Origin: an uncultured candidate division Zixibacteria bacterium
Lineage (GTDB): Bacteria; Zixibacteria; MSB-5A5; RBG-16-43-9
Assembly: GCA_963713865.1 (NCBI GenBank)
Contig: OY970208.1
Location: 2,464,001 to 2,528,000 of the forward strand
Direction of reading: 5' to 3'
Length of the DNA: 64,000 bases
The notes under the pieces were generated by a model, which was given only the letters and a program-made list of their open reading frames with translations, ran no database searches and had not been told where the DNA came from. The first letter of the stretch is position 1. The number at the start of each line of letters is the position of its first letter. Below, in pieces: positions 2,681 to 63,937 of the stretch. Made by a program: the position numbers and the translations under genes.

Positions 2681-3649
2681 TTATTTTTTCATCTCTTGTC
2701 TGAGTTTTTCTAAATCCTCCTTCAGTTTCTCTAGTTCTTCTTTAAGTCCCTCCAGCTCCTTTTTTAGTTGTCTCTCGTCCGTAGAAAACTCTTTCTGGAT
2801 AAGAGGTTCAGGGATTTTGAGCTTTTCCGTAAATATTTTTATCTTATCCATATCCGGCCGGACCGTCTTTGACCATTCCTCTGCTTCCTGCAGAGTGACG
2901 GAAAATCTCATAGGTTTTTTCTCTCTAAATACTTCCAGATTGACTTTGTCTCCCTTCTCCTTATCAGAGACTATCTCCAGAAGCTCGTCAGAATTTTCAA
3001 CTTTGCGACTATCCACTTCCACGATCACGTCCCCGGCTTTTAATCCAGCTTGTTCTGCTGGACTTTCCTTCTCCACCTCAGTAATCAGCACACCTTCTCC
3101 ATTTTTAACCCCAAAGTAGTTCCCTAACTGATCAGTTAAATCCTGAATGGAAATCCCCAGCTTTGACCCTGAAAAAATAGACATCTTGAAAGGGAATCCC
3201 TTTTTCTTCTCCAGCTGTAGTCCTTCAGGAAAAGGGTTATACATACTTGAGGAAGAACTCTCACCCAGAGTAACCTGGATGATCTTCCTTTTCCCATCCC
3301 GGATGACCTTCAGTTCAATCTTGGTTTTGGGAGAAGTTTTTCTAACTAAACTGGTGAGGTCATCAACTGATAATACCCTCTTGCCATTAAAGGAGATTAT
3401 CACATCCCCATCCTCCAATCCTCCCTCTTCAGCCGGGCTATCCTCCACCACTCCACTGACCAGGACACCCTCTGTGGCTTCATCTAAATCCATTGATTCC
3501 TTTAGTCCAGAGGTAAGCTCCTGCAGATAAACTCCCAGCCAGCCCTGTTTTTTGTCCTTAACAGTTTTTTCAGCCCAGCTTAAGCTCAGGAATAGAAAAA
3601 CTACCAGGACCAGAAGCAGAAGCGTTGCTTTTGATAATTTTTTTAACAT
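2681..3649 (-). CDS. Exported tandem-PDZ domain protein with C-terminal coiled coil; no protease domain visible
   Basis: Signal peptide; two PDZ repeats (GWLGV..SPAEEGGLEDGDVI and KLGISI..SPAEQAGLKAGDVI); AGGAGG ribosome-binding site. Confidence 0.8.
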   Translation of the reverse strand: MLKKLSKATLLLLVLVVFLFLSLSWAEKTVKDKKQGWLGVYLQELTSGLKESMDLDEATEGVLVSGVVEDSPAEEGGLEDGDVIISFNGKRVLSVDDLTSLVRKTSPKTKIELKVIRDGKRKIIQVTLGESSSSSMYNPFPEGLQLEKKKGFPFKMSIFSGSKLGISIQDLTDQLGNYFGVKNGEGVLITEVEKESPAEQAGLKAGDVIVEVDSRKVENSDELLEIVSDKEKGDKVNLEVFREKKPMRFSVTLQEAEEWSKTVRPDMDKIKIFTEKLKIPEPLIQKEFSTDERQLKKELEGLKEELEKLKEDLEKLRQEMKK

Positions 3650-4169: not shown

Positions 4170-4318
4170 AATGGGAAATGGTTTTCGTAGTGCGACCCTT
4201 TCAGGGTCGCTTGTTTTTTCCATTCTCTATTGGTTTCCAAACATCTGAGAAAAGAACAGGGGCGTATTGCCATACGCCCCTGCAAACTCCAATCCGCCTT
4301 AGGCGGACAGACTGTATT

Positions 4319-7990: not shown

Positions 7991-9265
7991 ATGTCACAAA
8001 ACGATTACAAATATATAAAAGAACACGAAGACCAGCTTTTAAAATGCCTTAAGTGCGGCACCTGCCTGCCTGCCTGCCCTTTGTATGCGGAGCTTAAATA
8101 TGAGCCAGCCGCACCCAGAGGAAGGGTAGCTTTAATCGATGCCGCCTATAAAGGGGAGATCGACTTAACTGAGGTTTTCAGAAAAAAAATAGCTTTCTGC
8201 CTGAACTGTAAATCCTGCGTGGAAAATTGTCCCAGCGGAGTAAAAGTAGACGACTTGATTTTAACTGCCAGAGCTGAATTAGTCGAAAAAGGAAAGCTGA
8301 CCCTCATAGAAAGACTCATCTTCAGACATCTAATGAAAAGAGGAAGACTCCTCCCCCCTGTAGCTAAATGGGCAACCTTTATGGGCAGATTAGCCCAGAA
8401 AATGCTGCCGAGCAGCACCACCTTAAAACTATTCTTACCTATACCTGAAGGCTTTAAAGAAAGGATTTATCCCCGGATCGCTAAAAAGAACGCACGAAAA
8501 AGATTCCCTGAACTAATCAAGGTAAAAAATCCTAAGATGAGGGTCGGCTATTTTGTTGGCTGCGGAACAGATCTGGTTTATCCTGAGATAGCCGAGGCAG
8601 TGATAAAAGTTTTAACCCATAATGATATCGAGGTTGTCATTCCCAGAGGATGGGTTTGCTGTGGAACTTCAATCTATAACTCTGGTGATTTTAAAACCGG
8701 GATTAAACACGCCAGAAAGAACTTGAAAGTTTTCAATGAAGCTAAAGTGGATGCCATTGTAACCAACTGTGCCTCCTGCGGCTTGACCTTGAAAAAAGAG
8801 TATCCTGAACTTTTGAAAGTTGGAAAATTCGATGCCCCGGTTTATGATATAAACGAATTTCTAACTAAAGTGATTAAACTGAAAGACGATTTCAAATCAA
8901 TCGATTATAAAGTTACCTACCATGATCCCTGCCATCTGAACCGGGGACAGGGAATAAAAGCCGAGCCCAGAAAAATCTTGAAAAGCCTGCCCGGAGTCAA
9001 ATTCACCGATATGAAAGATGCAGACCGGTGCTGTGGCGGAGGAGGCTCTTTCCATTTAAAATATTATCCCATTTCCGTAGGTGTAATGCAGAAGAAATTG
9101 GTCAATATGGAAAAACTCGATGCAGATACCCTGGTAACCTCCTGCCCCGGCTGTATGATGAGATTTGAGGAAACGTTTTTACAGAAACAAAACGGCAAGA
9201 AAGTCAAGCACATAGTCCAGCTCTTAGCTGAAGCCTACGGAGATAAAGATCGTCGAGACGCATAG
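7991..9265 (+). CDS. glcF: GlcF-like Fe-S subunit of a glycolate/lactate dehydrogenase
   Basis: Two CxxCxxCxxxCP motifs, PRGR, two CCG domains (CCG..CASC; HDPCH..CCGGGG..CPGC). Confidence 0.8.
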   Translation: MSQNDYKYIKEHEDQLLKCLKCGTCLPACPLYAELKYEPAAPRGRVALIDAAYKGEIDLTEVFRKKIAFCLNCKSCVENCPSGVKVDDLILTARAELVEKGKLTLIERLIFRHLMKRGRLLPPVAKWATFMGRLAQKMLPSSTTLKLFLPIPEGFKERIYPRIAKKNARKRFPELIKVKNPKMRVGYFVGCGTDLVYPEIAEAVIKVLTHNDIEVVIPRGWVCCGTSIYNSGDFKTGIKHARKNLKVFNEAKVDAIVTNCASCGLTLKKEYPELLKVGKFDAPVYDINEFLTKVIKLKDDFKSIDYKVTYHDPCHLNRGQGIKAEPRKILKSLPGVKFTDMKDADRCCGGGGSFHLKYYPISVGVMQKKLVNMEKLDADTLVTSCPGCMMRFEETFLQKQNGKKVKHIVQLLAEAYGDKDRRDA

Positions 9266-10866: not shown

Positions 10867-12947
10867 AGACGAAAAATCCGGAAAAAATCTTAATAGTGGA
10901 TAATGAAGTTAGAATGCGTGAGAGTCTCAAGACTCTTCTGCATAACTCCGGGTATGAGGTGGAAACGGTAGAAGATGGGGAGAAAGCCATTTGCCTTATG
11001 AATCAAAATAATTTTGAATTGATAATTGCGGATATAAATATACCAAAAGCCAGTGGGATAGAACTGTTAAGAAAAGCAAAGTCTAAAGATAAAGATGCAC
11101 TGGTCATCCTCATGACCGGTTATGGTTCATTGGATTCTGCCTTAGAGGCGATAAAAGGAGGGGCTTATCACTATTTCCTTAAACCGATCGAGTTTTCAGA
11201 CCTGGAGAGAGTTATAAAAAGCGGGCTGGAGAAAAGGAAAATAGATTTGGAAAGAAAAATCCTTTTAAAAGAGCTTAAAGAGAAAAACGTAGAACTCAAG
11301 ACCAAAGTAGAGGAACTGAATGCCCTATACCAGGCTGGTCGAGCCTTGAGTTCCAAAGATAGTTTAGATGTTCTGCTGGCCAATATCCTTTCGCTGGCGA
11401 CTAAAGTGGTTAAGGCTAAAACCGGCTCCATAATGTTGCTGGATCCTTCAAATAGATTTCTTTTTATAAAAACAGCCATCGGTTTGGAAAAAGAGATTAT
11501 AAAGAATACAAAATTAGAGCTGGGCAAAAGCATATCCGGCTATGTGGCGGAAAAAGGGCAACCGCTTTTAGTGGAAGATGTGGAAAAAGATCCCCGCTTC
11601 AAAAGGACCTCCAGGGAAAAGTATGAGACCAAATCCCTGATCTCGGTCCCCTTGAAAGCTAAAGACAAGATCTTGGGTGTCATAAATCTAAATAACAAAC
11701 TCAGTGGTGAGCCTTTTAATACTAAAGATCTTAAATTGATCTCCACCTTTGCGTCCCAGGCAGCTATAGCGATTGACGATGTATATAATTTTGAGCAGAG
11801 CAGGAAAAAAATTGCCCAGCTCTCGGTTTTGCACCAGATAGCTTCACGCCTTGCTACTTTAGACGATTTTGAGGTAATATCGAGATTCATTTTCATGCAG
11901 TTAAAAAAAATAATCCCTATAGACTTTTCCCTGTGGTTTGACTGGAATGAAAAAAATCAAATGATAAGGCTCAGCTCTATCCATGGGCTGGAGGATAGAA
12001 TTTCAGGGTTGGAGATCCCCATTCTGGATTTAGATATATTCGATCGGGAAAAGCTAAGCCAGAAGATTAAAAAAAGGTTAGAGGAGGAAAAGTTTATTAC
12101 TCCTCAGAGCATTGTTTATTCTTTCCCCATATTAACTGAAGGCACTTTCCTGGGAATATTCTGTGCCGGGAATGTAAAAGGCATAGTTTTATCTCAGGAG
12201 GAAGAAGAGATTATCTCCATAGTAGGCTCGCAAGCATCTTCAATCTATGAACGCCAGCGAGCGATCCTGAATGCAACCAGACTTCTGACTATGGGGAATA
12301 TGATGTCCGAGATAACCCACGATCTAAAAAAACCTCTGACCAATTTAAAAGGGGTAATTCAGCTTTTAAAAGAAGGGAAAAGCGAAGGGAAAAAGGAAGA
12401 GCTCCTGAGAATATTGGATCAGGAGATCAACCGAGCGAGTGAGCTGGTCAGGGAGTTAGTGGATTTCTCCAATCCAGGTAAATATCAGTCAGAGAGAAAA
12501 TCGATCCTTCCCATTTTAGAAAAGGCTTTGAAGCTGCTGGAGACGGACGTAAAAAAGAATCGGATTAGAGTGATTAAAGAATATCCGGATAATCTCCCTT
12601 TAATTTTCATTAACGAGAATGAGCTCTTGGAGGCATTTATAAACGTGCTTTTAAATGCGGTTGAGAGTATGCGCGAAGGGGGAGAACTGAAGTTAGAGCT
12701 GAGCAGGTATTATGATACGCAGAGAGAAGACAGTATTCTTCAGTTCTGTATTGCTGACCAGGGTACGGGGATTCCCAAAGAGAACTTGAATCGGATCTTC
12801 GAACGGTATTTTACTACCAAGGAAGGTGGTTCAGGTTTAGGATTATCCATAGTAGAGAGAATTATCAAAGCCCATAACGGATTTATCAAAGTGGAAAGCC
12901 AGTTAAATAAAGGAACAAAATTCTTTATATGTTTACCCTGTGGTTAG
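10863..12947 (+). CDS. Receiver-GAF-GAF-histidine kinase
   Basis: N-terminal receiver (VDNE, ADINIP, KP), GAF, H-box ITHDLKKPL, DQGTGI, GSGLGLSI; ATGA overlap with the upstream gene. Confidence 0.85.
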   Translation: MKTKNPEKILIVDNEVRMRESLKTLLHNSGYEVETVEDGEKAICLMNQNNFELIIADINIPKASGIELLRKAKSKDKDALVILMTGYGSLDSALEAIKGGAYHYFLKPIEFSDLERVIKSGLEKRKIDLERKILLKELKEKNVELKTKVEELNALYQAGRALSSKDSLDVLLANILSLATKVVKAKTGSIMLLDPSNRFLFIKTAIGLEKEIIKNTKLELGKSISGYVAEKGQPLLVEDVEKDPRFKRTSREKYETKSLISVPLKAKDKILGVINLNNKLSGEPFNTKDLKLISTFASQAAIAIDDVYNFEQSRKKIAQLSVLHQIASRLATLDDFEVISRFIFMQLKKIIPIDFSLWFDWNEKNQMIRLSSIHGLEDRISGLEIPILDLDIFDREKLSQKIKKRLEEEKFITPQSIVYSFPILTEGTFLGIFCAGNVKGIVLSQEEEEIISIVGSQASSIYERQRAILNATRLLTMGNMMSEITHDLKKPLTNLKGVIQLLKEGKSEGKKEELLRILDQEINRASELVRELVDFSNPGKYQSERKSILPILEKALKLLETDVKKNRIRVIKEYPDNLPLIFINENELLEAFINVLLNAVESMREGGELKLELSRYYDTQREDSILQFCIADQGTGIPKENLNRIFERYFTTKEGGSGLGLSIVERIIKAHNGFIKVESQLNKGTKFFICLPCG

Positions 12948-13057: not shown

Positions 13058-14449
13058 ATGAGAGATAAAGTAAAGTTGTTAGTCATCGATGATGACCCAA
13101 GTGTCCCCTGGCTTTTAAGCGAAGGGTTAGGAGAGAATTATGAGATCGCTTCAGCCCGGGATGGAAAGGAGGGAATTAAGCTTATTTCTGGAAATAGACC
13201 GGATCTGGTATTGCTGGATATCAAAATGTCAGGGCTGAGTGGGTTTGAGGTTCTGGAGCAGATTAAAGAAATGGATCGCTTATTAGAGGTTATAATGCTT
13301 TCCGGACATAGCGAGACTAAAAATGTTGTGGAGTCGATTCGCCGTGGTGCCTCGGAATTTATAACTAAACCTTTTGATGTGAAAGAAGTTGAAATTCATA
13401 TTCAGAAGGTTCTTGAAAAAAATAAGCTGAAAAAAGAGTTAGACCTGCTGAAATCAGAACTTCAGGCAAAAACTCAGTACGATAAGCTAATCGGAGAATC
13501 TCCCAAAATGTTGCAGGTCAAAAGCTTAATAGAACAGGTAGCGGACTCGGAATTGACTGTGCTTATCAGGGGAGAAAGCGGCACCGGCAAGGAGATAGTT
13601 GCCCGGATGATCCATAACCTTTCCAGCCGTAGAAATGAAACCCTTATAAAGCAAAACTGTGCGGCTATACCCCGTGAGCTTTTGGAGGCTGAGCTATTCG
13701 GGTACGAGAAAGGGTCTTTTACCGGGGCGCATAAGACCAAACCAGGCAGGTTTGAGACCGCTCACAAGAGTACCATGTTTTTAGATGAGATCGGGGATCT
13801 GCCTTTAGAGCTTCAATCCAAGCTCCTCCAGGTCCTAGAGCAACATGAGTTCTTAAGAGTTGGTGGGATAAAAAATATTCAGGTGGACGTACGGATTGTC
13901 TGCGCTACAAATCGAGATCTGGAAAAAGCCTTAGAAAAACAGCTTATGCGAGATGATCTATATTACCGTTTAAATGAGATCACTATCCAGTTGCCTTCCT
14001 TAAGAGAGATCAAGGATGATATTCCTTTTCTGGTTGACCATTTTTTAAAGAAGTATAATCTTCAATATAAAAAAGAATATTCTCAACTTTCTCCGAAAAG
14101 TATGAATCTTCTCCAGGAATATGGCTGGCCTGGAAATGTGAGGCAGTTAGAGAATCTGATTAAACAGATCATTGTGCGAGGGAATGAGAATATCATACTG
14201 GAAACTATTAAGGCAACTATAATACCTTCTGAGACTACAGAAGAGCTCGGATCCCAAACTGAAGAAAAAGACTTTTCTCTTAAAAAAAGGGTAGCTAAAA
14301 CTATCGCCAGTCAGGAAAAGAGATTAATCCTGGAAGTTCTTAACAAGACTAACTGGAACCGGAGAAAAGCGGCAGAGCTTTTGGAAATAAGTTATCGCTC
14401 TTTGCTCTATAAGATCAAAGAATACCGGCTCAATGAAACTGAAAAATAG
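13058..14449 (+). CDS. Sigma54-dependent response regulator (NtrC/AtoC family)
   Basis: Receiver, GESGTGKE, GSFTGA (GAFTGA variant), FLDEIG, WPGNVRQLEN, C-terminal Fis-type HTH. Confidence 0.92.
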   Translation: MRDKVKLLVIDDDPSVPWLLSEGLGENYEIASARDGKEGIKLISGNRPDLVLLDIKMSGLSGFEVLEQIKEMDRLLEVIMLSGHSETKNVVESIRRGASEFITKPFDVKEVEIHIQKVLEKNKLKKELDLLKSELQAKTQYDKLIGESPKMLQVKSLIEQVADSELTVLIRGESGTGKEIVARMIHNLSSRRNETLIKQNCAAIPRELLEAELFGYEKGSFTGAHKTKPGRFETAHKSTMFLDEIGDLPLELQSKLLQVLEQHEFLRVGGIKNIQVDVRIVCATNRDLEKALEKQLMRDDLYYRLNEITIQLPSLREIKDDIPFLVDHFLKKYNLQYKKEYSQLSPKSMNLLQEYGWPGNVRQLENLIKQIIVRGNENIILETIKATIIPSETTEELGSQTEEKDFSLKKRVAKTIASQEKRLILEVLNKTNWNRRKAAELLEISYRSLLYKIKEYRLNETEK

Positions 14450-15401: not shown

Positions 15402-15860
15402 TTTTTTTAATCACGCTTTGACAAGGATGTCATCTGCAAAAAAGAAAAGAATTAAAAAATAATTAAAATTAGTAAGAACCCAAAATTCAAGAGTTGATTT
15501 ATCTATTTGTTATTTCGTGTTTGGGAGATAAGTGTTTATTTCCCCTCCTTTTCAAGGGGAAGGTAAGGGAGTGGTTATATATGTAGCGTCAGGTTTTATG
15601 CCCGGCGTTCATTTTCCCATTGAAACGGAAAATACATAAATTAAATTCCTCTCCCTTTTGGAGATTGATAGAATCAGAGTATATCCCGCCCTTAGATGGG
15701 CTGATGCTAAAAAAGCAAGAGCAAGCTCTTGCACTCCACTCAAAAACAGGTAGAGACGCATGGCTATGCGTCTCTACGAGAATTTTGTCGGGTCAGGGGA
15801 CCCGTGTGCAACGGCTATATTGGAACTAGTATCCCCACCTTGCCCGCAAGGTGGGATTAA

Positions 15861-15888
15861 GTAGGGGCGTATTGCAATACGCCCCTAC
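15861..15888. repeat. GTAG-type REP GTAGGGGCGTATTGCAATACGCCCCTAC (representative copy)
   Basis: Perfect 28-bp palindrome; related copies at 3743-3770, 4256-4283 and 35613-35640. Confidence 0.85.
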
Positions 15889-15894
15889 GAAAAG

Positions 15895-17271
15895 CTATTC
15901 AGGGAAGATTTTGCCGGGGTTGATTATTCCTTCAGGATCAAAGGCTTGTTTTATCTTTTTCATAAACTCTATTCCGGCTTTGCCCACTTCTTTTTCTAAG
16001 AATCTTGATTTGGTTGTGCCGATGCCGTGCTCTCCGGAAAGAGTTCCGCCTAACTTTAAAGTCAAATCGAACAATTTCTCTACTGCCTGTTCCACCCGGT
16101 GCATCTTGGCTTTATCTCTGGAGTCGGTCATAAAATTAACGTGCAGGTTTCCATCTCCGGCATGCCCGAAGGTATTTATCTGAACGGTGTAATCTTTTGC
16201 CAGCTTTTTGATTCCCCGGACTAACTCCGGAAGCTGACTGGGAGGAACGCAAACGTCTTCATTTACCTTGGTAGGAGCTAATCTTAATAAAGACGCAGAG
16301 ACAGACCGCCGGATTTTCCAGAGATTGTCTTTTTCCTCTTTGGTGTCTGCAAACCTTAAACTTTTAGCATTATTTCTCTGACAGATCTTTATGATATCTT
16401 CTGCTTCTTTATGAGCTTCTGCTTTTTCTCCGCTGGTTTCGATCAAAAGAACTGCTTCTGCTTTTTCGACCAGGTCAGTTTGGATATATTCCAAGACACA
16501 GGCTAAAGTGTCACCGTCGATGAACTCTAAAATAGATGGAGTGATCCCTGAAGCGGTAATATCCGCTACTACTTTTGCGGCGTCCTCCATCTGGTTGAAG
16601 CCGGCTAAGATCGTTTCCTCATAAGCTGGTTTGGTTAAAAGTCTCAAAGCTATTCTGGTTATCAAAGCCAGAGTCCCTTCGGAGCCATTGATAAGTCCGG
16701 AAAGGTCGTAGCCTGAGTCTCCATCCTGGTCCAGGATTCCTGTTCGGATTATCTCTCCATTATAAAGGATACATTCCAATCCCAGGACATAATTTTTGGT
16801 AACTCCATATTTCCTGCCTCTTAACCCTCCGGCACATTCGGCTACATTTCCTCCTAAAGTCGAGGTTTTCAAACTGGATGGGTCAGGCGGGTAGAAAAGC
16901 CCGATTTTTTCCATCTCATCTGCAAAGTTTTGAGTAACCACTCCTGGCTCAACTACCGCATACATCTTATCTTTATCTACAGATAAAATCTTGTTCATCT
17001 GCTCGAAACTGACCACGATTCCACCTTTGACTGGCAACGAGCCGCCAGTATAACCTGAGCCTGCACCCCGGCTGACGATTGAAATTTTATGGGTTGAAGC
17101 ATATTTCATTAGTTCTACCACCTGTTTAGTGTTCTGCGGAATGACCACTGCATCCGGCATAAAGCTGGTGTTGGTGGCATCGTAGGAATAGCAGAGTCTT
17201 TCCTCATAGGTGGAGAGGAGATTTTTAGGGCCGAAAATTCTTTTTAGGTCTTCAAATAGGTTTTCTTTCAT
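15895..17271 (-). CDS. glcD: GlcD-like FAD-linked oxidase subunit (glycolate/D-lactate dehydrogenase)
   Basis: RGAGSGYTGG, YPPDPSS, GGNVAECAGG, GSEGTL, GHAGDGNLH, SGEHGIG, NPGKIF. Confidence 0.85.
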   Translation of the reverse strand: MKENLFEDLKRIFGPKNLLSTYEERLCYSYDATNTSFMPDAVVIPQNTKQVVELMKYASTHKISIVSRGAGSGYTGGSLPVKGGIVVSFEQMNKILSVDKDKMYAVVEPGVVTQNFADEMEKIGLFYPPDPSSLKTSTLGGNVAECAGGLRGRKYGVTKNYVLGLECILYNGEIIRTGILDQDGDSGYDLSGLINGSEGTLALITRIALRLLTKPAYEETILAGFNQMEDAAKVVADITASGITPSILEFIDGDTLACVLEYIQTDLVEKAEAVLLIETSGEKAEAHKEAEDIIKICQRNNAKSLRFADTKEEKDNLWKIRRSVSASLLRLAPTKVNEDVCVPPSQLPELVRGIKKLAKDYTVQINTFGHAGDGNLHVNFMTDSRDKAKMHRVEQAVEKLFDLTLKLGGTLSGEHGIGTTKSRFLEKEVGKAGIEFMKKIKQAFDPEGIINPGKIFPE

Positions 17272-17586
17272 AGCATCATCCTTCTTTGAAAATGGACTAA
17301 GCTTATCTTAATCTATACGAAATAAAATCGAAAATGAAAAGTGGAGTATAAAGCCATCAAGGTCTTGTCCACAGGATCCTGGTGAGGACTATAGCTTTAC
17401 TATTTTCTCTTGTTTGTGCGGGAATTCCCCAGAATGGGTCTTGACGACAATTCCCGAACCAACTTAAAACCAAAGGGCGAAGAATCTACAGACGAAAGAG
17501 ATTTAGTCGGGCAGTTTTCAACAGCCCGACCTACTGCTACTACTGCTACTATTTACAGAAAAAAAATTGCCAATTATTGACGAATA

Positions 17587-18627
17587 TTATAATAGAAAAA
17601 TATTATTTTCATGACATTTACTAATCATGTCATCAGGCCAAATACTGCTTTGGACTTCACCTATATGAGCCTTTCGAAGGTAAAACATGCAAAGCCGCGA
17701 TTGGCCGATACCACCTCCAATAGAAAGTGGCAATTCGTCATTGAGCAGACGCCTGTGGAAGTATAAATCTTTTCTTTTCATTTCACCCTTAATCTTCAGT
17801 TGTCGCAACAGCGTTTCAGCATTTACTCGTATTCCCATTGAAGAAAGCTCATAGGCACAGTTTAAAATCGGGTAGTAAATCAATATGTCTCCATTCAATC
17901 CCTTGTATTTACTACCAATGGGTGTGGACCAATCATCATAATCTGGGGCTCGACCATCATGCGGTTTGCCGTTTTTCAGGCTGCCGCCAATCCCGATGAT
18001 AAAAACAGCACCGTACTCGTTGCACACAGCTTTTTCCCTTTCATCGGGCGTCAGTTCTGGATATCTTTCCTCTAGTTCTTCACTATGTACAAAAGTAATG
18101 TCTTCCGGAAGGATGGGCTCGATGACGCTGTATTGATGGCAAATATATTTTTCTGTTCTTTTTATGACATCATATATTTTTCGGACAACACCTTGGAGAT
18201 AATTTAGGTTTCTTTCGTTTGGTGATATCACCTTTTCCCAATCCCACTGATCCACATATAGCGAATGCAGGTTGTCCAGACATTCATCTGATCGAATGGC
18301 ATTCATATCGGTGTACAGGCCTTCACCATGCTGAAAATTATAATCGGCCAGCATCATACGCTTCCATTTAGCTAAGGATTGCACGATCTCTGCATTAATA
18401 TCATCCAAAGCCTTTATCTTAAAAGAAACGGGTCTCTCTACACCGTTTAGGTCGTCATTGATACCTGTACCTGCTTTGACAAACAGAGGTGCCGTAACCC
18501 GTTGAAGGTTCAACTCAAATGATAAATTGATCTGGAAAAATTCTTTTATTAGCCGGACTGCTTTTTCCGTTTCTTTCAGATCCAACAATGGTTCATACTG
18601 TTCCGGGATAAATAAACTTGTTCTCAT
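17587..18627 (-). CDS. asnA: Aspartate--ammonia ligase
   Basis: GINDDLNGVE, SLAKWKR, YVDQWDWE, HDGRAPDYDDW, ELSSMGIRV, GGGIGQSR. Confidence 0.95.
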   Translation of the reverse strand: MRTSLFIPEQYEPLLDLKETEKAVRLIKEFFQINLSFELNLQRVTAPLFVKAGTGINDDLNGVERPVSFKIKALDDINAEIVQSLAKWKRMMLADYNFQHGEGLYTDMNAIRSDECLDNLHSLYVDQWDWEKVISPNERNLNYLQGVVRKIYDVIKRTEKYICHQYSVIEPILPEDITFVHSEELEERYPELTPDEREKAVCNEYGAVFIIGIGGSLKNGKPHDGRAPDYDDWSTPIGSKYKGLNGDILIYYPILNCAYELSSMGIRVNAETLLRQLKIKGEMKRKDLYFHRRLLNDELPLSIGGGIGQSRLCMFYLRKAHIGEVQSSIWPDDMISKCHENNIFLL

Positions 18628-18696
18628 AAAATACCTCCTTTCATATCGCTGTTAGCAAATTCAAATCTCTCGCTTATTAGATATAATCATCTGAAG

Positions 18697-19015
18697 GCCT
18701 AACATAGGTTTATCTGTACTAATAAAATTACAATTACGGCTATTTCTAACCATAAAAACCTCCTTACTAACTTGTAATTTTATTTAATCATTTACTTTAA
18801 TCGCAAGCAGTTAGATAATAAATATCTTATAAACTTACAATCTTTTATACAGCTAAAAGAAGTCGCATAAAATGAAAATTAAAATATATCTGTAAACAAG
18901 ATAAATTGCCTTGTTTAGATATGCAAGTAAAATTCTTCCGTCAGGTCAGGGGACCTGACGGTCACGTGAAAGAGATTTAGTCGGGCAGTTTTCCACAGCC
19001 CGACCTACTGCTACT
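18697..19015 (-). repeat. Array spacer copy 1: AT-rich attI-like platform plus two REPs
   Basis: Near-identical to 20193-20510 and 22365-22607; minus strand ends AGATAAA-CCTAT-GTTAGGC. Confidence 0.85.
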
Positions 19016-19027
19016 GACTGGAAGTAC

Positions 19028-19083
19028 CCGAACCTTCGCTGGGGCGCGGTGGTAGCAACGTCGGCTGCACGCGCTTGTTAGCT
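19028..19083 (-). other. Partial integron attC site (R''/L'' half) downstream of the GT14 gene
   Basis: Minus strand AGCTAAC-AAGCG-CGTGCAGCCGACG, 25 nt after the stop codon; the matching second arm is absent. Confidence 0.6.
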
Positions 19084-19108
19084 CGCTCTCCGTGATAAGT
19101 CAAAATGG

Positions 19109-19936
19109 CTACGATAGATTTGACTCCAAGATACTCAAGATGCCTCCATCAACGGTTTCGTCGAATTTGCGGGCAAACAAGTCTTGACTTGCCATCAAGA
19201 AATCAGCGTCTTTGGACGTGAAGTCTCTTGGACGTAACTTTATTGTTCCTAGCGGCACCCAGTCAATGGTCCTTTTATCGTCGTTCACAATAGTTGCCTT
19301 GTAGTTAGTATTCATTATTACCGTCTGAAAGAATCCTTCATCAGATATAAAGGTGTGCCGATAGAATCTCTTGAACCTTTTGACCTCAAAGCTGTAGCAC
19401 ATATATTCACAGAACTTCCTGCTCAAGATCATCCACTGATTTCCGATATAAGGAGTCACGCCTCGAAGATACGGTCGCTTGATAGGAGTGCGTAGTATCC
19501 TCTTGCTAAACTCGATACAGTAGTTCTCGATTCGAGATAGTGTATCAGGGCGTATCTCTCTCTGGTTAGCCACCTTGATGAAATCCCTTCCTATATTGAG
19601 GCTAAGAAAATCCTGGATGTGCGTCTGCGACTTTAGGGGGAAATCCTGTGCGCTAAGGTTTATGAAAAATTCCCATTCCGAGCTGATCTTCAATAACTCC
19701 TTGATGCCTCGCAATTCAGCATCTACCATGCTGTATCCCCCCCAAAGAATGCTTTGGCTTTTCAGCAAGGATGCGTTGGCAAAGCTTGACAAGAAATCTT
19801 GTATCTCCGTCTGTAATCCAACGCCTGATCTCTTATCCACATGAACCAGGTAATAGTTGGCGGGATGGTAAATTGCTCTAAAGAGCCTTTTGAACTGGTT
19901 AGGATACCGATGTACCAAGATGAGGTATGCGATCAT
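19109..19936 (-). CDS. Glycosyltransferase family 14 (Core-2/I-branching beta-1,6-GlcNAc transferase-like)
   Basis: IAYLILVH, YLVHVD, WGGYSMV, FINLSAQDFPL, GNQW, DEGFFQT, FARKFD. Confidence 0.88.
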   Translation of the reverse strand: MIAYLILVHRYPNQFKRLFRAIYHPANYYLVHVDKRSGVGLQTEIQDFLSSFANASLLKSQSILWGGYSMVDAELRGIKELLKISSEWEFFINLSAQDFPLKSQTHIQDFLSLNIGRDFIKVANQREIRPDTLSRIENYCIEFSKRILRTPIKRPYLRGVTPYIGNQWMILSRKFCEYMCYSFEVKRFKRFYRHTFISDEGFFQTVIMNTNYKATIVNDDKRTIDWVPLGTIKLRPRDFTSKDADFLMASQDLFARKFDETVDGGILSILESNLS

Positions 19937-20192
19937 GTCCTTAACGATCTCCTCTAATCTGTATCTTCCTCAATAATTAGCGGGAAACTAACTCTGCACA
20001 GCCTCTTTCACTCGTGAAAACCGAGGCTACGGGCAACTTTCCCACAGTTATTGAGAATATACTATAACTTGTATCTCTCGAATTTCTATCATGGCAAGCC
20101 TTTCATGGTTAGGATATGGCTATGCCAGAATTATATTCCGAATACGACGGCTTGGCCGAAAAAAGGGGCGACACCTTTGCATACAACGAGCG

Positions 20193-20510
20193 GGCTAACA
20201 TAGGTTTATCTGTACTAATAAAACTACAATTACAGATATTTCTAACCCATAGAAACTTCCTTGCTAACTTACAATTTTTTTTAATCATTCCCTTAATTCG
20301 CAACGGAAAGATAATAGATATCTAATAAACTTACCATCTTTTATACAGTTAAAAAAAGCCGCATAAAATGAAAATTAAAATATATCTGCAAGCAAGATAA
20401 CTTGCCTTGTTTAGATATGCAAGTGAAATTTTTCGTCAGGGCAGGGGACCTGACGGGCACGTGAAAGAGATTTAGCCGGGCAGTTTTCCACAGTCCGACC
20501 TACTGCTACT
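20193..20510 (-). repeat. Array spacer copy 2: attI-like platform plus two REPs
   Basis: Aligns with copy 1 over its full length; core GTTAGCC. Confidence 0.85.
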
Positions 20511-20514
20511 TGGC

Positions 20515-20688
20515 TTATGCGCTCCGGTTGGCGAACGATCGACCAGCGTTTACACCGGAACCAAACCCTGTTGCAAAGAAACCGATTTTTGCTGCCAGCG
20601 AGACATCTCTCCAAATCACAATTGAGAAGACAACCGCAAAAACAAAAAACATGATTGATATCCCCATAAGATTTTTGTTTGACCTCAT
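20515..20688 (-). CDS. Small two-helix membrane protein (57 aa, MRSNKNLMGIS...)
   Basis: GAAGGAG ribosome-binding site before the ATG at 20688; two hydrophobic segments; the longer ORF start lies inside a repeat. Confidence 0.6.
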   Translation of the reverse strand: MRSNKNLMGISIMFFVFAVVFSIVIWRDVSLAAKIGFFATGFGSGVNAGRSFANRSA

Positions 20689-20746
20689 CCTAATATCTCC
20701 TTCGTGAATTTTAAAATTACAGCCATATTCACACTCAAACCCGGCT

Positions 20747-20803
20747 ACCCAACACAGGTTAATCTGTACCAATAAAATTACAATTACGGCTATTTCCAAC
20801 CAA
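20747..20803 (-). repeat. Array spacer copy 3, truncated to the ~57 core-proximal bp
   Basis: Matches the other copies up to the AAC/GTT core (GTTGGGT). Confidence 0.8.
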
Positions 20804-20810
20804 ACTATGA

Positions 20811-22328
20811 TTAGCTTTCCTGTTCGGTAGCCTTTGCCCTTTCCTCATAAGACATATCTGCCAGGCGTTTAACTTCGTTCACATCAAGGCCCAATCCTTC
20901 CGCTACGCGACGGCCATAATCCTGGTCCGCTTTATAAAACAAAGCTGTCTGGCGAAATTGAATGCGTTTTTTCGCCTTGCCCAGGTGGTCCACTATGTTG
21001 CCGATCAGGTGATCCCGGTCCTCATCCTGCATAACTTTGCGATAGAGGTTTCCAGGTTGAACAAAGTCATCATTAGGAAAATTAAAGGGGAAACGCCCCG
21101 CCTGGCCTGAAAGTTCAAAAGGAGGTTCGCCTGTTGCGGGATCCGGCCCGGGGCCGTCAAAACTGTTGGGCCAGTAATTGGGTCCACCCCCTCCGTTGGC
21201 GTCAACACGCATGAAACCGTCACGCTGGTAATTGTTTTCCAAAGCGCATTTAGGCGCATTGACTGGAATAAGATGATAATTAGGACCCAGTCTATGAAGG
21301 TGCGTATCATGGTAAGAAAAAACCCTTGCTTGCAGCATCTTATCCGGTGAAACGGCGATTCCCGGGACTACGTTTCCCGGGCAAAAAGCCGCCTGCTCTA
21401 CTTCTGCAAAATAGTTGACGGGGTTACGGTTTAAAACCAGCTTACCAATTTTGACGGGTGGGACTTCTTTATGCGGCCACACTTTAGTGATGTCAAAGAT
21501 ATCCCAGGGGAAATCCTTGGCTTTCTCTGGTGTTAGAATCTGCATCTCCAGCGTCCAGGAAGGATAGTCACCTCGTTCGATAGCATTATACAGATCACGG
21601 GTGGCGTGATCCGGATCTTCCCCGCAGAGCCTCTTCGATTCCTGGCGGGTCAGATTCTTGATACCCTGATCTGTCTTGAAATGGTATTGTACCCAGAAAT
21701 ACTCCCCCTTATCATTGTACCATTTGAAGGTGTGGCTACTATAACCGTTCATATGCCGGTAAGCGGCCGGTGTTCCCCTGTCGGAGAAAAGAATGGTAAC
21801 TTGATGAACGGATTCGGGAGTAAGAGACAGAAAGTCCCAAAACATGTCCGGATCAGGCAGATTGGTTGCGGGGCGCCTTTTCTGGGTGTGGATGAAGTCG
21901 GGGAACTTAAGTGGATCCCGGATAAAAAATACCGGCGTGTTGTTGCCCACGAGGTCATAATTGCCTTCTTCAGTGTAGAATTTCAATGCAAAGCCGCGTG
22001 GGTCCCGTGCAGCATCGGCTGAGCCCCTTTCACCACCAACGGTGGAAAAGCGAGCGAAGACTTCCGTGCGCTTTCCCACTTTTGAAAGAAACTTGGCTTT
22101 GGTGTACCTGGTCACATCGGCAGTAACTTCGAAATAACCAAATGCTCCAGCTCCTTTTGCATGCACGACACGTTCGGGAATTCGCTCACGGTCGAAGTGG
22201 GCTAATTTTTCCAGCAAATGGGCATCCTGCATGAGTACAGGTCCACGTTCACCGGCTGTCATGCTGTTCTGGTCGTCAGCCACAGGGATTCCAAAAGCTG
22301 TGGTTAGTCTTTTTTTCTCTTCTTTCAT
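20811..22328 (-). CDS. katA: Monofunctional heme catalase (small subunit)
   Basis: [47 protein letters not shown]. Confidence 0.95.
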
Positions 22329-22364
22329 GGCTTACCTCCTTCCTGTAATTATGAATCCATAGCT

Positions 22365-22607
22365 ATATAACATAGGTTTATCTGTACTAATAAAATTACA
22401 ATTACGGCTATTTCTGACCATAAAAACCTTTTTGCTAACTTATAATTTTATTTAATCATTTACTTTATTTACAAGCAGTAAGATAATAAATTTCTAATAA
22501 ACTTACCCTCTTTTATACGGCTAAAAGAAACCGCATAAAATGAAAATTAAAATAAATCTGAAAAAAAGATAACTTTCCTTTTTCAGGTATGCAAGTAAAA
22601 CTTTTCC
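22365..22607 (-). repeat. Array spacer copy 4: attI-like platform
   Basis: Aligns with copies 1 and 2; core GTTATAT. Confidence 0.85.
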
Positions 22608-22714
22608 CTCCCTAAATTAAGCAGCCACCCTTGATGTGTTGTCAAGTGTCACTACCTGACAGCCATAAGTACTTGACGTCAGGAGGTAACTCCTGACGCC
22701 ACAATTCAACAATA

Positions 22715-23224
22715 TTATTTTTGCCTTTTTCCTTCCGCATCGAACCATTCACTGTCTGGACATACCGGCTCAGCCTGGTTTCTCCTCACATTATCTCCCT
22801 GGATGGAAGCCATTATGAAATTCTCCGGAGGAACTGGTGAACCGAAAAGACGGCGCAACATAGCCAGCTGTCCCGCGTGTGACATAGCATCTGAGAAGGG
22901 TCCCTGAAGCATCCTTTCAGGAGTAGTGCCCTGGAATGGCGTTCCCTGTTCCAGATGTGTCCTGAGACTATCAAGTATCCTGTGAAACTCCTCGATTTCC
23001 AGATTAAAGTTGTCTTTGATCTCAGGTCTGAACTTTCCTCCAACAAAAAACGTCCTGGCGTATCCCAGAACATTGGTCATATGAAAAACTATTTGATGAG
23101 GCGTCCTGACACCAGGAGCGGCACGGAAACTCGCAAATTCAGGCGGAGCATCCCTGAGGGCTTTTTGCGCTCGATAAGCTATTGCCCCAAGAAAGTGGCG
23201 AAGTATCATTCTTTTATCATCCAT
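22715..23224 (-). CDS. DinB/YfiT-like hypothetical protein
   Basis: Helical pattern with RTPHQIVFHM and SHAGQLAMLRRLFG. Confidence 0.6.
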   Translation of the reverse strand: MDDKRMILRHFLGAIAYRAQKALRDAPPEFASFRAAPGVRTPHQIVFHMTNVLGYARTFFVGGKFRPEIKDNFNLEIEEFHRILDSLRTHLEQGTPFQGTTPERMLQGPFSDAMSHAGQLAMLRRLFGSPVPPENFIMASIQGDNVRRNQAEPVCPDSEWFDAEGKRQK

Positions 23225-23557
23225 ACAAGCTCACCTTTTGGCAGTATAATAAAAGTTTCTCTAATCTTGCAAGAGAAATTCCTATGTCTGGTCAAGGGAA
23301 ATGATTGGCATGTGTACAAAACAATTTCCCTCCCTCGATGGGAGGGAATAAAAGGGAGGGTGTTAACATTATTTTATTACCCTCTCCCCCGCCTCTGGCG
23401 GGATTTTCAACCTATCCCTCTCCCATTAAGGGAGAGGGAACTAAAAAAAATATCCCACCCCGCTTCTGGCGGGATGGGATACCAAAATCGCAAGGAGATC
23501 CACTTGGATGTCCCTGCAATTATTTGGACAGGACACTGTCCTGTCCCTACAAAAAGA

Positions 23558-42525: not shown

Positions 42526-43122
42526 AACTCCTCCTTTCGTGGAATTGAAAAAAGTTAATTGGTTACCCGCGACGAAATGATTCCCATCTGATTTACCAGA
42601 TTATGCTCACACGCACTTTCTGATCAAAAATATAACTCCCCCTAAATCTTGTCAAGAAAAAAATAAAAAACGTGATAAATCTATCATTGCGGGGAATCCC
42701 GCAGTATGCGGGACGACGAAGCAATCCGACTCTGAAAATTTAAAATGTAGCGGAGGTCTTCAGACCTCCATCTCTTGGAAGACTAAAGTCTTCCGCTACC
42801 AAGGGCTCGCAAAGACACTTTCTGTGTAGTAGCTTGAGTTAGCGGTGGGTTAGGCTTCCTACCTCACCATAGGGAACAGGCAGTCCTGGCAACGGATCCT
42901 TAGGAGATGCCTGTTCTACCAACTTTAAAACAAAAAACCCAAGCTAAGAGCAACCTGGGTCTACCAGTTGATTAACTATTTACACTCAAATTTATCTCAC
43001 TCTAATATTAATTTGAATGTGTCCGTCGGGTCCCCCGACCCGACGGAAGAATAGCGATCCTAAAAGTGTCACCCTACAAAAATCTTTACGGTCACGAATC
43101 ACGGACAACAGTCATCCTCTTT

Positions 43123-63066: not shown

Positions 63067-63094
63067 TTCTCCAAATTCTCCTTATTCATTTATT

Positions 63095-63180
63095 CCGTCG
63101 GGTCAGGGGACCCGACGGGCACGTGAAAGTAACTAAACTGTGCCTGCCTTTCTGTGCTCGTCAGGTCCCCCGACCTGGCG
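63095..63180. repeat. Two REP palindromes downstream of the RAYT gene
   Basis: CCGTCGGGTCAGGGGACCCGACGG-GCAC (63095-63122) and an inverted variant (63154-63180). Confidence 0.85.
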
Positions 63181-63190
63181 AATTAAGACC

Positions 63191-63745
63191 TCAAAAACTT
63201 AATAACTCAGTGTCAACTTTAATTATTGAATGGTCATTCAAAATATAATTTCTGGCACTAGAATATCGATAATCCTCAGGTTTCTCTACTAATCCTTCTT
63301 TGCCCGGATTATTATGGATATAGTCTATTTTAGTTCTTAATATCTTAGGACTATAGACACCTAAATCATCATATCCTAGTTGCCAGATTTGATATTCCCA
63401 ATTCTTTTTCTTGGGTTCTTCTAATCTAAATAATTTCAACCAATTTATTCTCTTGTCTTTCTCCATCTGCTCACGCAATTTCCTAGCTGTAAATATTTTA
63501 AAGTCTTCTATAATTTTAGAAATTTCTTTTACTCTTTCCTGGTCTGGATAAATCAACAAATGAATATGATCTGGCATAACTACGTAGGCAATCAGCTTAA
63601 AAGCATACTTTTCTCTATAAAAGCTAATATTCTCTAAAATTATATCAATATATTTTTTCTCTTTGAAAATCTTGACAAATTTATTAACGCTTGTTGTGAT
63701 AAAATAACTATTACCTTCGAAATATTTCCTGCCTCTTAAAGGCAT
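63191..63745 (-). mobile_element. REP-associated tyrosine transposase (RAYT/TnpA-REP, Y1 HUH family)
   Basis: YFITTSV, YVVMPDHIHLL (HUH), IWQ, YIHNNP, YRYSSA; start set at ATG 63745; REPs on both sides. Confidence 0.88.
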
Positions 63746-63756
63746 ATAATTTCCAC

Positions 63757-63937
63757 CCGTTAGGTCAGGGGACCTAACGGTCACATGTAAAGTGTGCCTT
63801 CTTGTGTCCGCAAGGACCCCTGACCTTGCAGATAAAATTCTTACCGTCGGGTCAGGGGACCCGACGGGCACATTGAAACGGTCATGAAATCATAGTCACA
63901 GTATTACCGTGCCTACCAGATCCCCTAACCTGGCAGG
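63757..63937. repeat. Four alternating REP palindromes upstream of the RAYT gene
   Basis: Copies at about 63757-63784, 63804-63830, 63844-63871 and 63909-63937, consensus GTGN-CCGTCGGGTCCCCTGACCCGACGG. Confidence 0.85.

Follow-up and report, generated by a model that had tools for sequence, protein, structure and literature searches.

The DNA analyzed here is a 64,000-nucleotide stretch (the window) of contig OY970208.1 from an uncultured candidate division Zixibacteria bacterium, whose genome we refer to as G000; coordinates are window positions unless marked as genome positions. In this window asnA, a GT14 glycosyltransferase gene, a gene for a small membrane protein and katA all lie on the minus strand, and each is preceded, in that direction, by a copy of one repeat. 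We found that the repeat is a mosaic of four modules (A, B, C and D). The sequence would fit an array of self-contained units, each with a promoter/leader, a gene and a terminator, whose shared modules act as portable homology in the manner of the promoter-early stem-loop (PeSL) cassettes of phages; we give this reading about an even chance. The original prediction had taken the repeat for a multiplied attI-like integron platform, loaded copy by copy, possibly by an integrase acting in trans. One promoter-like platform has indeed been multiplied, with each copy before a different gene; an attI/integrase mechanism, in contrast, was not supported.

The repeat and its four modules

A 243-nt repeat occurs three times in the window (18700–18942; 20196–20438 at 79%; 22368–22610 at 89%) and a 59-nt piece four times (18694–18752, 20190–20248, 20744–20802 and 22362–22420; 80–86% to the reference copy). 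BLAST of a 336-nt unit against the whole genome returned 321 nt at 89% (20192–20510), 243 nt at 89% (22368–22610), 55 nt at 91% (20748–20802) and 53 nt at 96% (17494–17545). Repeat identities of 79–96% over 53–321 nt are far beyond chance, so that the copies predicted before asnA, the GT14 gene, the small membrane gene and katA are real. Their sizes had to be amended: two copies are about 320 nt long rather than about 240, as they carry the additional hairpin modules A and B, and a fifth piece, module A, lies at 17494–17545. No Rfam family was found for the repeat at E values up to 1, and in the whole window one tRNA alone reached the gathering score.

The modules are combined differently at each gene: A-B-C-D before asnA and the GT14 gene, C-D before katA, D by itself before the small membrane gene, and A by itself after asnA. 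The A-B-C-D arrangement arises where units abut, the 3′ modules of one unit and the 5′ modules of the next together giving the repeat of about 320 nt.

Read in the direction of transcription, the composite before katA (22361–22610) consists of C (22444–22600) and D (22361–22441; 76.4 bits to the D profile). katA encodes a monofunctional catalase (20811–22328; Pfam PF00199, Catalase, 5e-201). Between its stop codon and the next open reading frame (ORF) lies the short copy, module D alone (20743–20818; 59.5 bits). That ORF (20515–20688) encodes a hydrophobic small membrane protein of 57 aa, conserved in G001, a genome of the same genus, and in G003; a Pfam scan assigned it to no family. The second A-B-C-D composite (20189–20510; 321 nt at 89%) contains A (20465–20510), B (20434–20464), C (20273–20430) and D (20189–20271; 64.6 bits), and a conserved 250-nt leader (19937–20188) separates this D from the start codon of the GT14, or Core-2 I-branching family, glycosyltransferase gene (19109–19936; PF02485, Branch, 1.3e-42). 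The leader is also kept in G001 and G008 (loci L026 and L009), contains a terminator-like hairpin at 20047–20027 and has no Rfam match. At the 3′ end of the GT14 gene, modules A (18970–19020) and B (18938–18969) form a terminator-like region (18938–19020), followed by the AT-rich, promoter-like module C (18776–18937; C1 18860–18937, C2 18776–18859) and by the asnA copy of D (18694–18775; 82.9 bits to the D model R1), which ends in ...ACAGATAAACCTATGTT and then AGG. asnA itself, an extra, xenologous gene for aspartate-ammonia ligase (17587–18627; PF03590, AsnA, 2.7e-108), is directly followed by the third copy of A (17494–17545; 53 nt, 96%), where the array ends. The Pfam matches bore out the predicted identities of asnA, the GT14 gene and katA. 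Upstream of the katA unit, a large hairpin region (22615–22715) lies 3′ of a DinB-like ORF (23224–22715), and beyond the other end of the array is a gene for an FAD-linked oxidase (17271–15895), both genes being on the minus strand as well.

Module A is a hairpin, GTCGGGC-N11-GCCCGAC, with AGTAGC repeats ahead of it, and is always found 3′ of a gene. Module B consists of a 10-bp hairpin and, after it, a short run of T. The A-B hairpins folded as RNA with a z score of −3.87, and the hairpin upstream of the katA unit with a z score of −4.78, none of 200 shuffles being as stable. The number of promoter-like sites was 31, compared with 11.7 ± 3.6 in shuffled sequences, and several lie inside the repeat modules. 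Module C of the asnA copy holds TTGCAT-17-TATCTT (recognized by eye) and TTGCGA-18-TAAAAT (18806–18777).

Module B is a repetitive extragenic palindromic (REP)-type repeat: its type occurs 37 times in the genome and 0–2 times in shuffled genomes. Like REPs and bacterial interspersed mosaic elements (BIMEs) with their REP-associated tyrosine transposases (RAYTs), this short extragenic palindrome flanks a Y1-transposase-like gene, a 226-aa ORF (63191–63871, minus strand) with a Y1 (HUH) transposase match (PF01797, 37.8 bits, genome 2527440–2527676); B-like matches lie at 63090–63129, 63757–63790 and 63827–63871. The ORF and its hairpins look like a REP/RAYT pair, and further module B hairpins were seen at 43019–43052 and 31417. 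BOX and Correia elements are modular intergenic repeats, and the whole repeat is like BOX elements in being a mosaic of independently occurring modules. However, REP behavior is confined to module B; unlike REP, BIME and BOX elements, C and D are non-palindromic, low in copy number and invariably directed at a gene start.

Conservation, position and distribution of module D

Module D is about 60–80 nt long, and similarity ends about 4 nt beyond a GTT. In 47 aligned copies from many genomes, the information content was 1.6–2.0 bits per position over TTATTAGTACAGATAAACCTATGTT; the bases after this core hold 0.9, 1.1, 0.5 and 0.7 bits, and those beyond 0.1–0.3 bits. The boundary just after GTT, predicted from the four window copies, is true of these and general in the alignment; it coincided with GTT everywhere, as the original prediction required. 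The predicted AGATAAA, 5-nt spacer and GTT are likewise conserved in D. The GTTAG-like repeats described upstream of them are present, and the nearer one alone (ATGGTTAG/A) is moderately conserved in copies elsewhere; the others are not.

The copies form a nested series in which the 3′ end is always kept, with a long form of about 200 nt, D alone and a core of 25–37 nt. The long form, which occurs in both clades described below, corresponds to the 3′ part of C1 together with C2 and D. D lies a few to about 75 nt ahead of start codons. Measured from an anchor set 8 nt past GTT, the distance to the ORF start is at most 65 nt in 47 of the 56 copies that have an ORF downstream, D and the ORF being co-oriented in every case. 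RNAalifold revealed no consensus secondary structure in the 47 copies on either strand, and D as a structured RNA or riboswitch was therefore rejected. As single-stranded DNA, D folded no better than shuffled sequences (z −0.99, +0.38, +0.51 and +1.01).

A profile search found eight D copies in G000, four in the window and four at genome positions 83.0, 668.3, 669.8 and 672.3 kb, which are likewise minus-strand copies. The four outside the window each end about 11–35 nt ahead of a start codon, and the genes behind them are SieB-like or unnamed by Pfam. Those at 668–672 kb constitute an array between mnmG and mnmE, adjoining yidC, rnpA and dnaA. Within the order, where distribution was counted with the sequence-only D model R1, D was present in 15 of 34 genomes, at 0–8 copies each. 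An exact-pattern scan of species-representative genomes for the D core gave 29 loci, labeled as candidate division WOR-3, Ca. Stahlbacteria, uncultured Ignavibacteria and unclassified bacterium, together with single contigs of metagenome-assembled genomes labeled Cloacimonadota, Atribacterota and Thermoplasmatota. Three matches in Clostridioides/Metaclostridioides mangenotii shared the 23-mer alone, inside apparent coding sequence, and were taken as chance. The core pattern had no match in viral contigs. Five of the genomes from the exact-pattern scan, G041 to G045, carry 1–12 copies each, and D was present in 11 of 31 genomes around G042. Because G041–G045 and the relatives of G042 lie outside the 285-genome sample of the phylum of G000, we infer that D spans two clades without a common phylum.

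A transcription start at the ACAG of the core would be predicted from a TTGCAT-like −35 element and a TAATTT or TATTTT −10 element, both recognized by eye in family f4 of the order and in G003. G042 and G043 have a consensus TTGACA-17-TATAAT promoter a few nucleotides 5′ of D; D is probably transcribed in these genomes, since the promoter is just upstream of it. This promoter belongs to a second repeated module with a C-rich context, usually just 5′ of D and sometimes without D (L077, approximately 3200–3250, 4200–4260, 15590–15640, 16890–16940 and 18590–18650; L079, approximately 9040–9090 and 11210–11280), and its spacer has CGTGATTGTA in common with D. The D-linked units of G041 end in a different conserved hairpin of 34 nt (L081, approximately 8323–8356, 11856–11888, 12455–12488 and 13495–13528). 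As the units of this clade end in another hairpin, the 3′ module appears to be lineage-specific and the 5′ module D shared.

Other known signals were compared with D. A dif-like Xer site, LexA, Fur and PerR boxes, and sigma-54, sigma-28 and extracytoplasmic function (ECF) promoters were examined by eye against their consensus sequences, and none fitted. A leader element of the RfaH/ops type was not supported, as G000 has one NusG-family gene and no paralogue was found. A search for a T7-like single-subunit RNA polymerase (PF00940) gave no match in G000, but control genomes equally gave none, so that this negative carries no weight. Eight sigma-70-family genes were found in G000.

Cargo, variation between relatives and the integron test

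The genes behind D are an accessory set rich in defense and stress functions, not a metabolic regulon. Their Pfam families include catalase, AsnA, GT14, TIR (two clear matches and one below the cut-off), SieB, an AHJR-like nuclease, BrnT, FRG, Hypoth_Ymh, GNAT, SAM-methyltransferase, FMN reductase, SRPBCC, ydhR/ABM, PEMT, RRM, CBS, DUF5674 and DUF4185, and 23 of the 41 cargo proteins scanned had no Pfam family. Arrays also occur elsewhere: in G041, seven D copies lie within about 6 kb between dapF and an aminotransferase gene, with one or a few small genes after each (L081), and in G042 six copies extend over 14 kb.

The window asnA looks captured. It is 48–49% identical to the native asnA of G000 (49%; genome 2707008–2708069) and of relatives. 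The native type is present in 28 relatives, and the window gene had no closer match among the 40 relatives searched. Its nearest relatives, at up to 76% amino acid identity, are in 80 metagenome loci, none of which carries D or the other modules.

Comparison of related genomes showed that the units vary in presence and position. G001 lacks a 2970-bp segment of G000 that comprises the asnA and GT14 units and is bounded by two copies of A. Its GT14 unit lies elsewhere, upstream of a TIR gene, with a shorter C-D form lacking 108 nt flanked by short direct repeats; before katA, G001 has D without C. At the dapF–aminotransferase hotspot, G044 and G041 share flanks and differ in content, with the junction inside a shared 28-nt D core. 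At the mnmE–mnmG hotspot, the D-linked genes of G000 and G003 differ, and the content in G001 differs as well; the flanks of the mnmE-proximal D of G000 and G003 did not align beyond D. The junctions are thus spread over module A, the D core, sequence upstream of D and short direct repeats, none of them placeable at a single nucleotide. For katA and the GT14 gene, the D core stays with the downstream gene between genomes and the upstream part varies. Since junctions fall in several modules and the D core stays with the gene, exchange by homology or short repeats fits better than one fixed crossover.

Metagenome contigs from four runs, compared over 15800–23400, left the asnA body (17578–18593) almost uncovered and covered its neighbors. 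Joints were seen from 17463 to 18936 and from 18761 to 22668–22692 (X3 and X4), and about 108 nt of the repeat were skipped in X1 (18755 to 18864) and X2 (20223 to 20331). These are weak hints of G001-like variants, most sides of the joints being shorter than 30 nt and the likeness 88%.

The attI is a simple site directly beside intI, in which two inversely oriented integrase-binding boxes surround the GTT, with crossover at G|TT and direct repeats upstream; it recombines with the attC sites that cassettes carry. The array resembles it in several respects: a promoter-bearing platform precedes a promoterless-looking gene, similarity ends at GTT, direct repeats lie upstream, the cargo is varied and the arrayed genes are co-oriented. 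It differs in that no intI lies beside D, attC sites are missing, the platform is repeated before every gene and the D core travels with the downstream gene. Because the bases after GTT hold only 0.5–1.1 bits, D shows no conserved right-hand attI box.

No integron integrase (IntI) above the NCBIfam cut-off was found in G000. What was found is a relic, a 97-aa C-terminal frame with 106.7 bits to TIGR02249 positions 247–315, located about 1.7 Mb from the array (genome approximately 753.9 kb). Its region (L001, 1417–1710 and 1951–2465; genome approximately 753.8–754.9 kb) is without the 5′ part of intI. The downstream region differs from that of the array: on the same strand are a 145-aa gene recognized by eye as SnoaL-like and then a classical attC-like palindrome; no D was found at the relic. 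As single-stranded DNA, this palindrome (L001, 2385–2465), used as a control, folded with z scores of −5.33 and −4.74, compared with −0.99 to +1.01 for D, in keeping with the predicted lack of an attC palindrome in the repeat. No repeat between 17.4 and 22.7 kb folds like an attC, and hairpins A and B have no AAC/GTT flanks. A cluster of attC sites lacking integron integrases (CALIN) holds at least two attC sites, imperfect palindromes with R″/L″–L′/R′ boxes, with cassettes as spacers. Like a CALIN, the array has no integrase, and its single-gene units alternate with a repeated element and stand between housekeeping genes. Unlike the attC of a CALIN, however, the repeat is not an imperfect palindrome and D is unfolded as single-stranded DNA, and the array does not fit this class.

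Across genomes, D and IntI do not co-occur. In the phylum sample, IntI was detected in nine of 285 genomes at E ≤ 1e-50 and above the cut-off in seven. D was not found in five of these seven (E ≤ 0.01); G014 and G031, the remaining two, carry a single D each, away from the contigs with IntI, and the D profile had no match in the IntI loci of G014, G031 and G037 (L039–L041). Conversely, IntI matches were lacking in 13 of the 15 genomes of the order that carry D. D was never seen next to an intact IntI, which is essentially one of the two outcomes that the original prediction had named as counting against it; the single adjacency is to a truncated fragment in G042. Directly 5′ of that fragment lie about four tandem copies of a GC-rich repeat of about 60 nt (L076, 8980–9260). 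Thus the absence of an intact IntI from G000, the lack of a D–IntI association and of attC partners, and the linkage of the D core to its gene do not bear out an attI served by an integrase in trans.

Apart from the IntI relic, the recombinases of G000 are two Xer-like tyrosine recombinases; no serine recombinase was found in this genome. One Xer-like gene (genome 1580083–1580902) is broken into two frames, of 264 aa and 67 aa, possibly by a frameshift or an assembly error. No recombinase was noticed among the ORFs beside the arrays in G000, G001, G041, G042 and G043, most of these ORFs being without a Pfam scan.

Interpretation of the array

In the reading that we favor, each unit would consist of an AT-rich sigma-70-type promoter region (C), one accessory gene and hairpin terminators (A and the REP-like B), with D as a conserved, unstructured promoter-proximal or 5′-leader element and the old, widely shared part of the units. 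As D lies a few to about 75 nt ahead of the start codon, it most likely includes or adjoins the transcription start, together with an operator or leader signal that these genes would have in common. General recombination between shared modules would delete, move and homogenize units, and module exchange would bring new genes under the same control. Ordinary recombination, helped by the modules, probably shuffles the accessory genes. The promoter, leader and terminator activities and the recombination pathway are those that we infer from the arrangement and its variants.

In T4-type phages, recombination through composite promoter/terminator motifs inserts, deletes and replaces small, non-essential genes (PMC2839356, PMC4122927). 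These PeSL cassettes are the closest described system. As far as those accounts describe them, they are short composite terminator and promoter repeats of hyperplastic regions, set amid small and non-essential genes that are often ORFans, and indels and replacements between close relatives end in the repeats, with no dedicated recombinase; PeSL cassettes also form mini-circles. The modules described here likewise flank small non-essential or ORFan genes in variable regions, and indels end in them. Compared with the same accounts, the units differ in lying in bacterial chromosomes, for example between mnmE and mnmG by dnaA, and in D being far longer and more conserved than a promoter and common to two clades.

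Several observations weigh against this reading. The D core contains no convincing sigma-70 hexamers, the approximately 37 conserved positions of D exceed what a promoter needs, and a core of 26–28 nt is short for RecA-dependent exchange. The core is nearly identical in both clades, and D was present in 12 of 151 genomes sampled from the class, all in families f1, f2 and f4 of the order, a patchy spread that suits a mobile entity better than an inherited regulatory site. The metagenome loci of the nearest relatives of the foreign asnA have neither D nor the other modules, yet the gene lies in exactly the interval from the end of D to the start of A, a placement for which homologous recombination alone gives no account. 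This placement and the patchy, two-clade conservation of D keep a site-specific or transposition mechanism alive. Finally, in the sole D–IntI adjacency, in G042, a truncated IntI fragment of 137 aa breaks off within a motif, 125 nt from the long-form element that follows it on the same strand; the fragment has the look of a relic truncated by that element, not of one half of a working pair.

These points bear on two kinds of alternative. D, or its GTT-ended core, could be the crossover of a site-specific gene-cassette system, attI-like with an integrase in trans or served by another recombinase, with cassettes inserted directly 3′ of GTT. Such a system would account for the conservation boundary at GTT in the 47 aligned copies, for arrays such as that of L081, with up to seven D copies and small genes between housekeeping genes, for the junction between G041 and G044 in the D core, and for the position of asnA; a cargo spectrum resembling that of integron cassettes, the two-clade distribution and the D copy next to an IntI fragment would also agree with it. 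Yet the candidate enzymes in G000 are Xer-like, without an intact IntI or a serine recombinase, D is absent from most IntI-positive genomes of the phylum sample and most D-bearing genomes lack IntI, and the unfolded D has no attC partners. Other junctions map to module A, to sequence upstream of D or to short direct repeats, and the core remains linked to katA and the GT14 gene while the upstream sequence changes. We therefore consider a cassette system unlikely. The same degree of doubt attaches to the proposal of an undescribed cassette system, in at least two clades of uncultured WOR-3-labeled bacteria, that would recombine at the D core, use neither attC nor IntI and have its recombinase encoded elsewhere. 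If it were true, a system without attC or IntI would build integron-like arrays of single accessory and defense genes at fixed hotspots of the chromosome (mnmE–mnmG and dapF–aminotransferase) and take up foreign genes, the xenologous asnA among them, immediately 3′ of GTT.

Alternatively, the long form of about 200 nt (...CAGATATA... to ...CCTATGTT) could be a non-autonomous mobile element with an outward promoter, similar to a miniature inverted-repeat transposable element (MITE) or derived from an insertion sequence (IS) end, that inserts upstream of genes and has left many copies truncated on the 5′ side. The long form begins at the same 5′ position in unrelated contexts in both clades, one copy abuts the truncated IntI gene, copies are nested by 5′ truncation and patchily distributed, and G000 has eight Y1 (HUH) transposase-like genes. 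Against this, inspection of the ends by eye revealed neither terminal inverted repeats nor target-site duplications, D lacks a hairpin of the kind that Y1 transposases use, and copy numbers are 0–12 per genome. Moreover, the element is invariably directed toward a downstream gene and has its 3′ end next to the ribosome-binding site, in line with selection for function rather than random insertion; we regard this alternative as quite improbable. A further possibility, to which we attach the slimmest chance, is that D encodes a short leader peptide (MV[RK]NSR[DN]CNFISTDKPML...) with its own Shine-Dalgarno sequence, whose translation or stalling would control the downstream gene by coupling. AGGAGG, 7 nt and ATG do follow one another in several copies, the 24 nt after ATG keep their length in divergent copies, and the frame crosses the core and stops no more than about 35 nt from the main start codon, or overlaps it (asnA, katA, c668, c672 and L066). 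However, ATG occupies the aligned codon in only 19 of 53 copies, and 18 of 53 combine an ATG with an open frame of 18 codons or more; the remaining copies have ATA, ACG, AAG, AGG or 1-nt indels, and those retaining the 3′ core alone have no such ORF. Third codon positions in the core hold about 1.6 bits on average, compared with 1.7–1.8 at first and second positions. As they are nearly as conserved as the others, the constraint on D appears to act on nucleotides, not on a peptide.

No prior description of the repeat was found in the literature on integrons in WOR-3; no wider literature search was made, and novelty is not established. As a caution for integron annotation, a GTT-ended boundary with upstream direct repeats is insufficient to call an attI. 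The interest of the array rests on D-marked accessory units that recur at fixed hotspots across uncultured lineages. With about 37 conserved unstructured positions, a fixed end before the ribosome-binding site and a distribution over two clades, D is a possible handle for finding its regulator or enzyme. If the reading as promoter/leader–gene–terminator units is true, bacterial chromosomes of poorly known lineages would use a device of T4-type phages, in which a standard terminator, promoter and leader bracket each accessory gene, so that any unit would be expressible anywhere and swappable by recombination without a dedicated enzyme. This would provide a simple account of the turnover of defense and stress genes at fixed hotspots and make D a searchable flag for accessory units in metagenomes.

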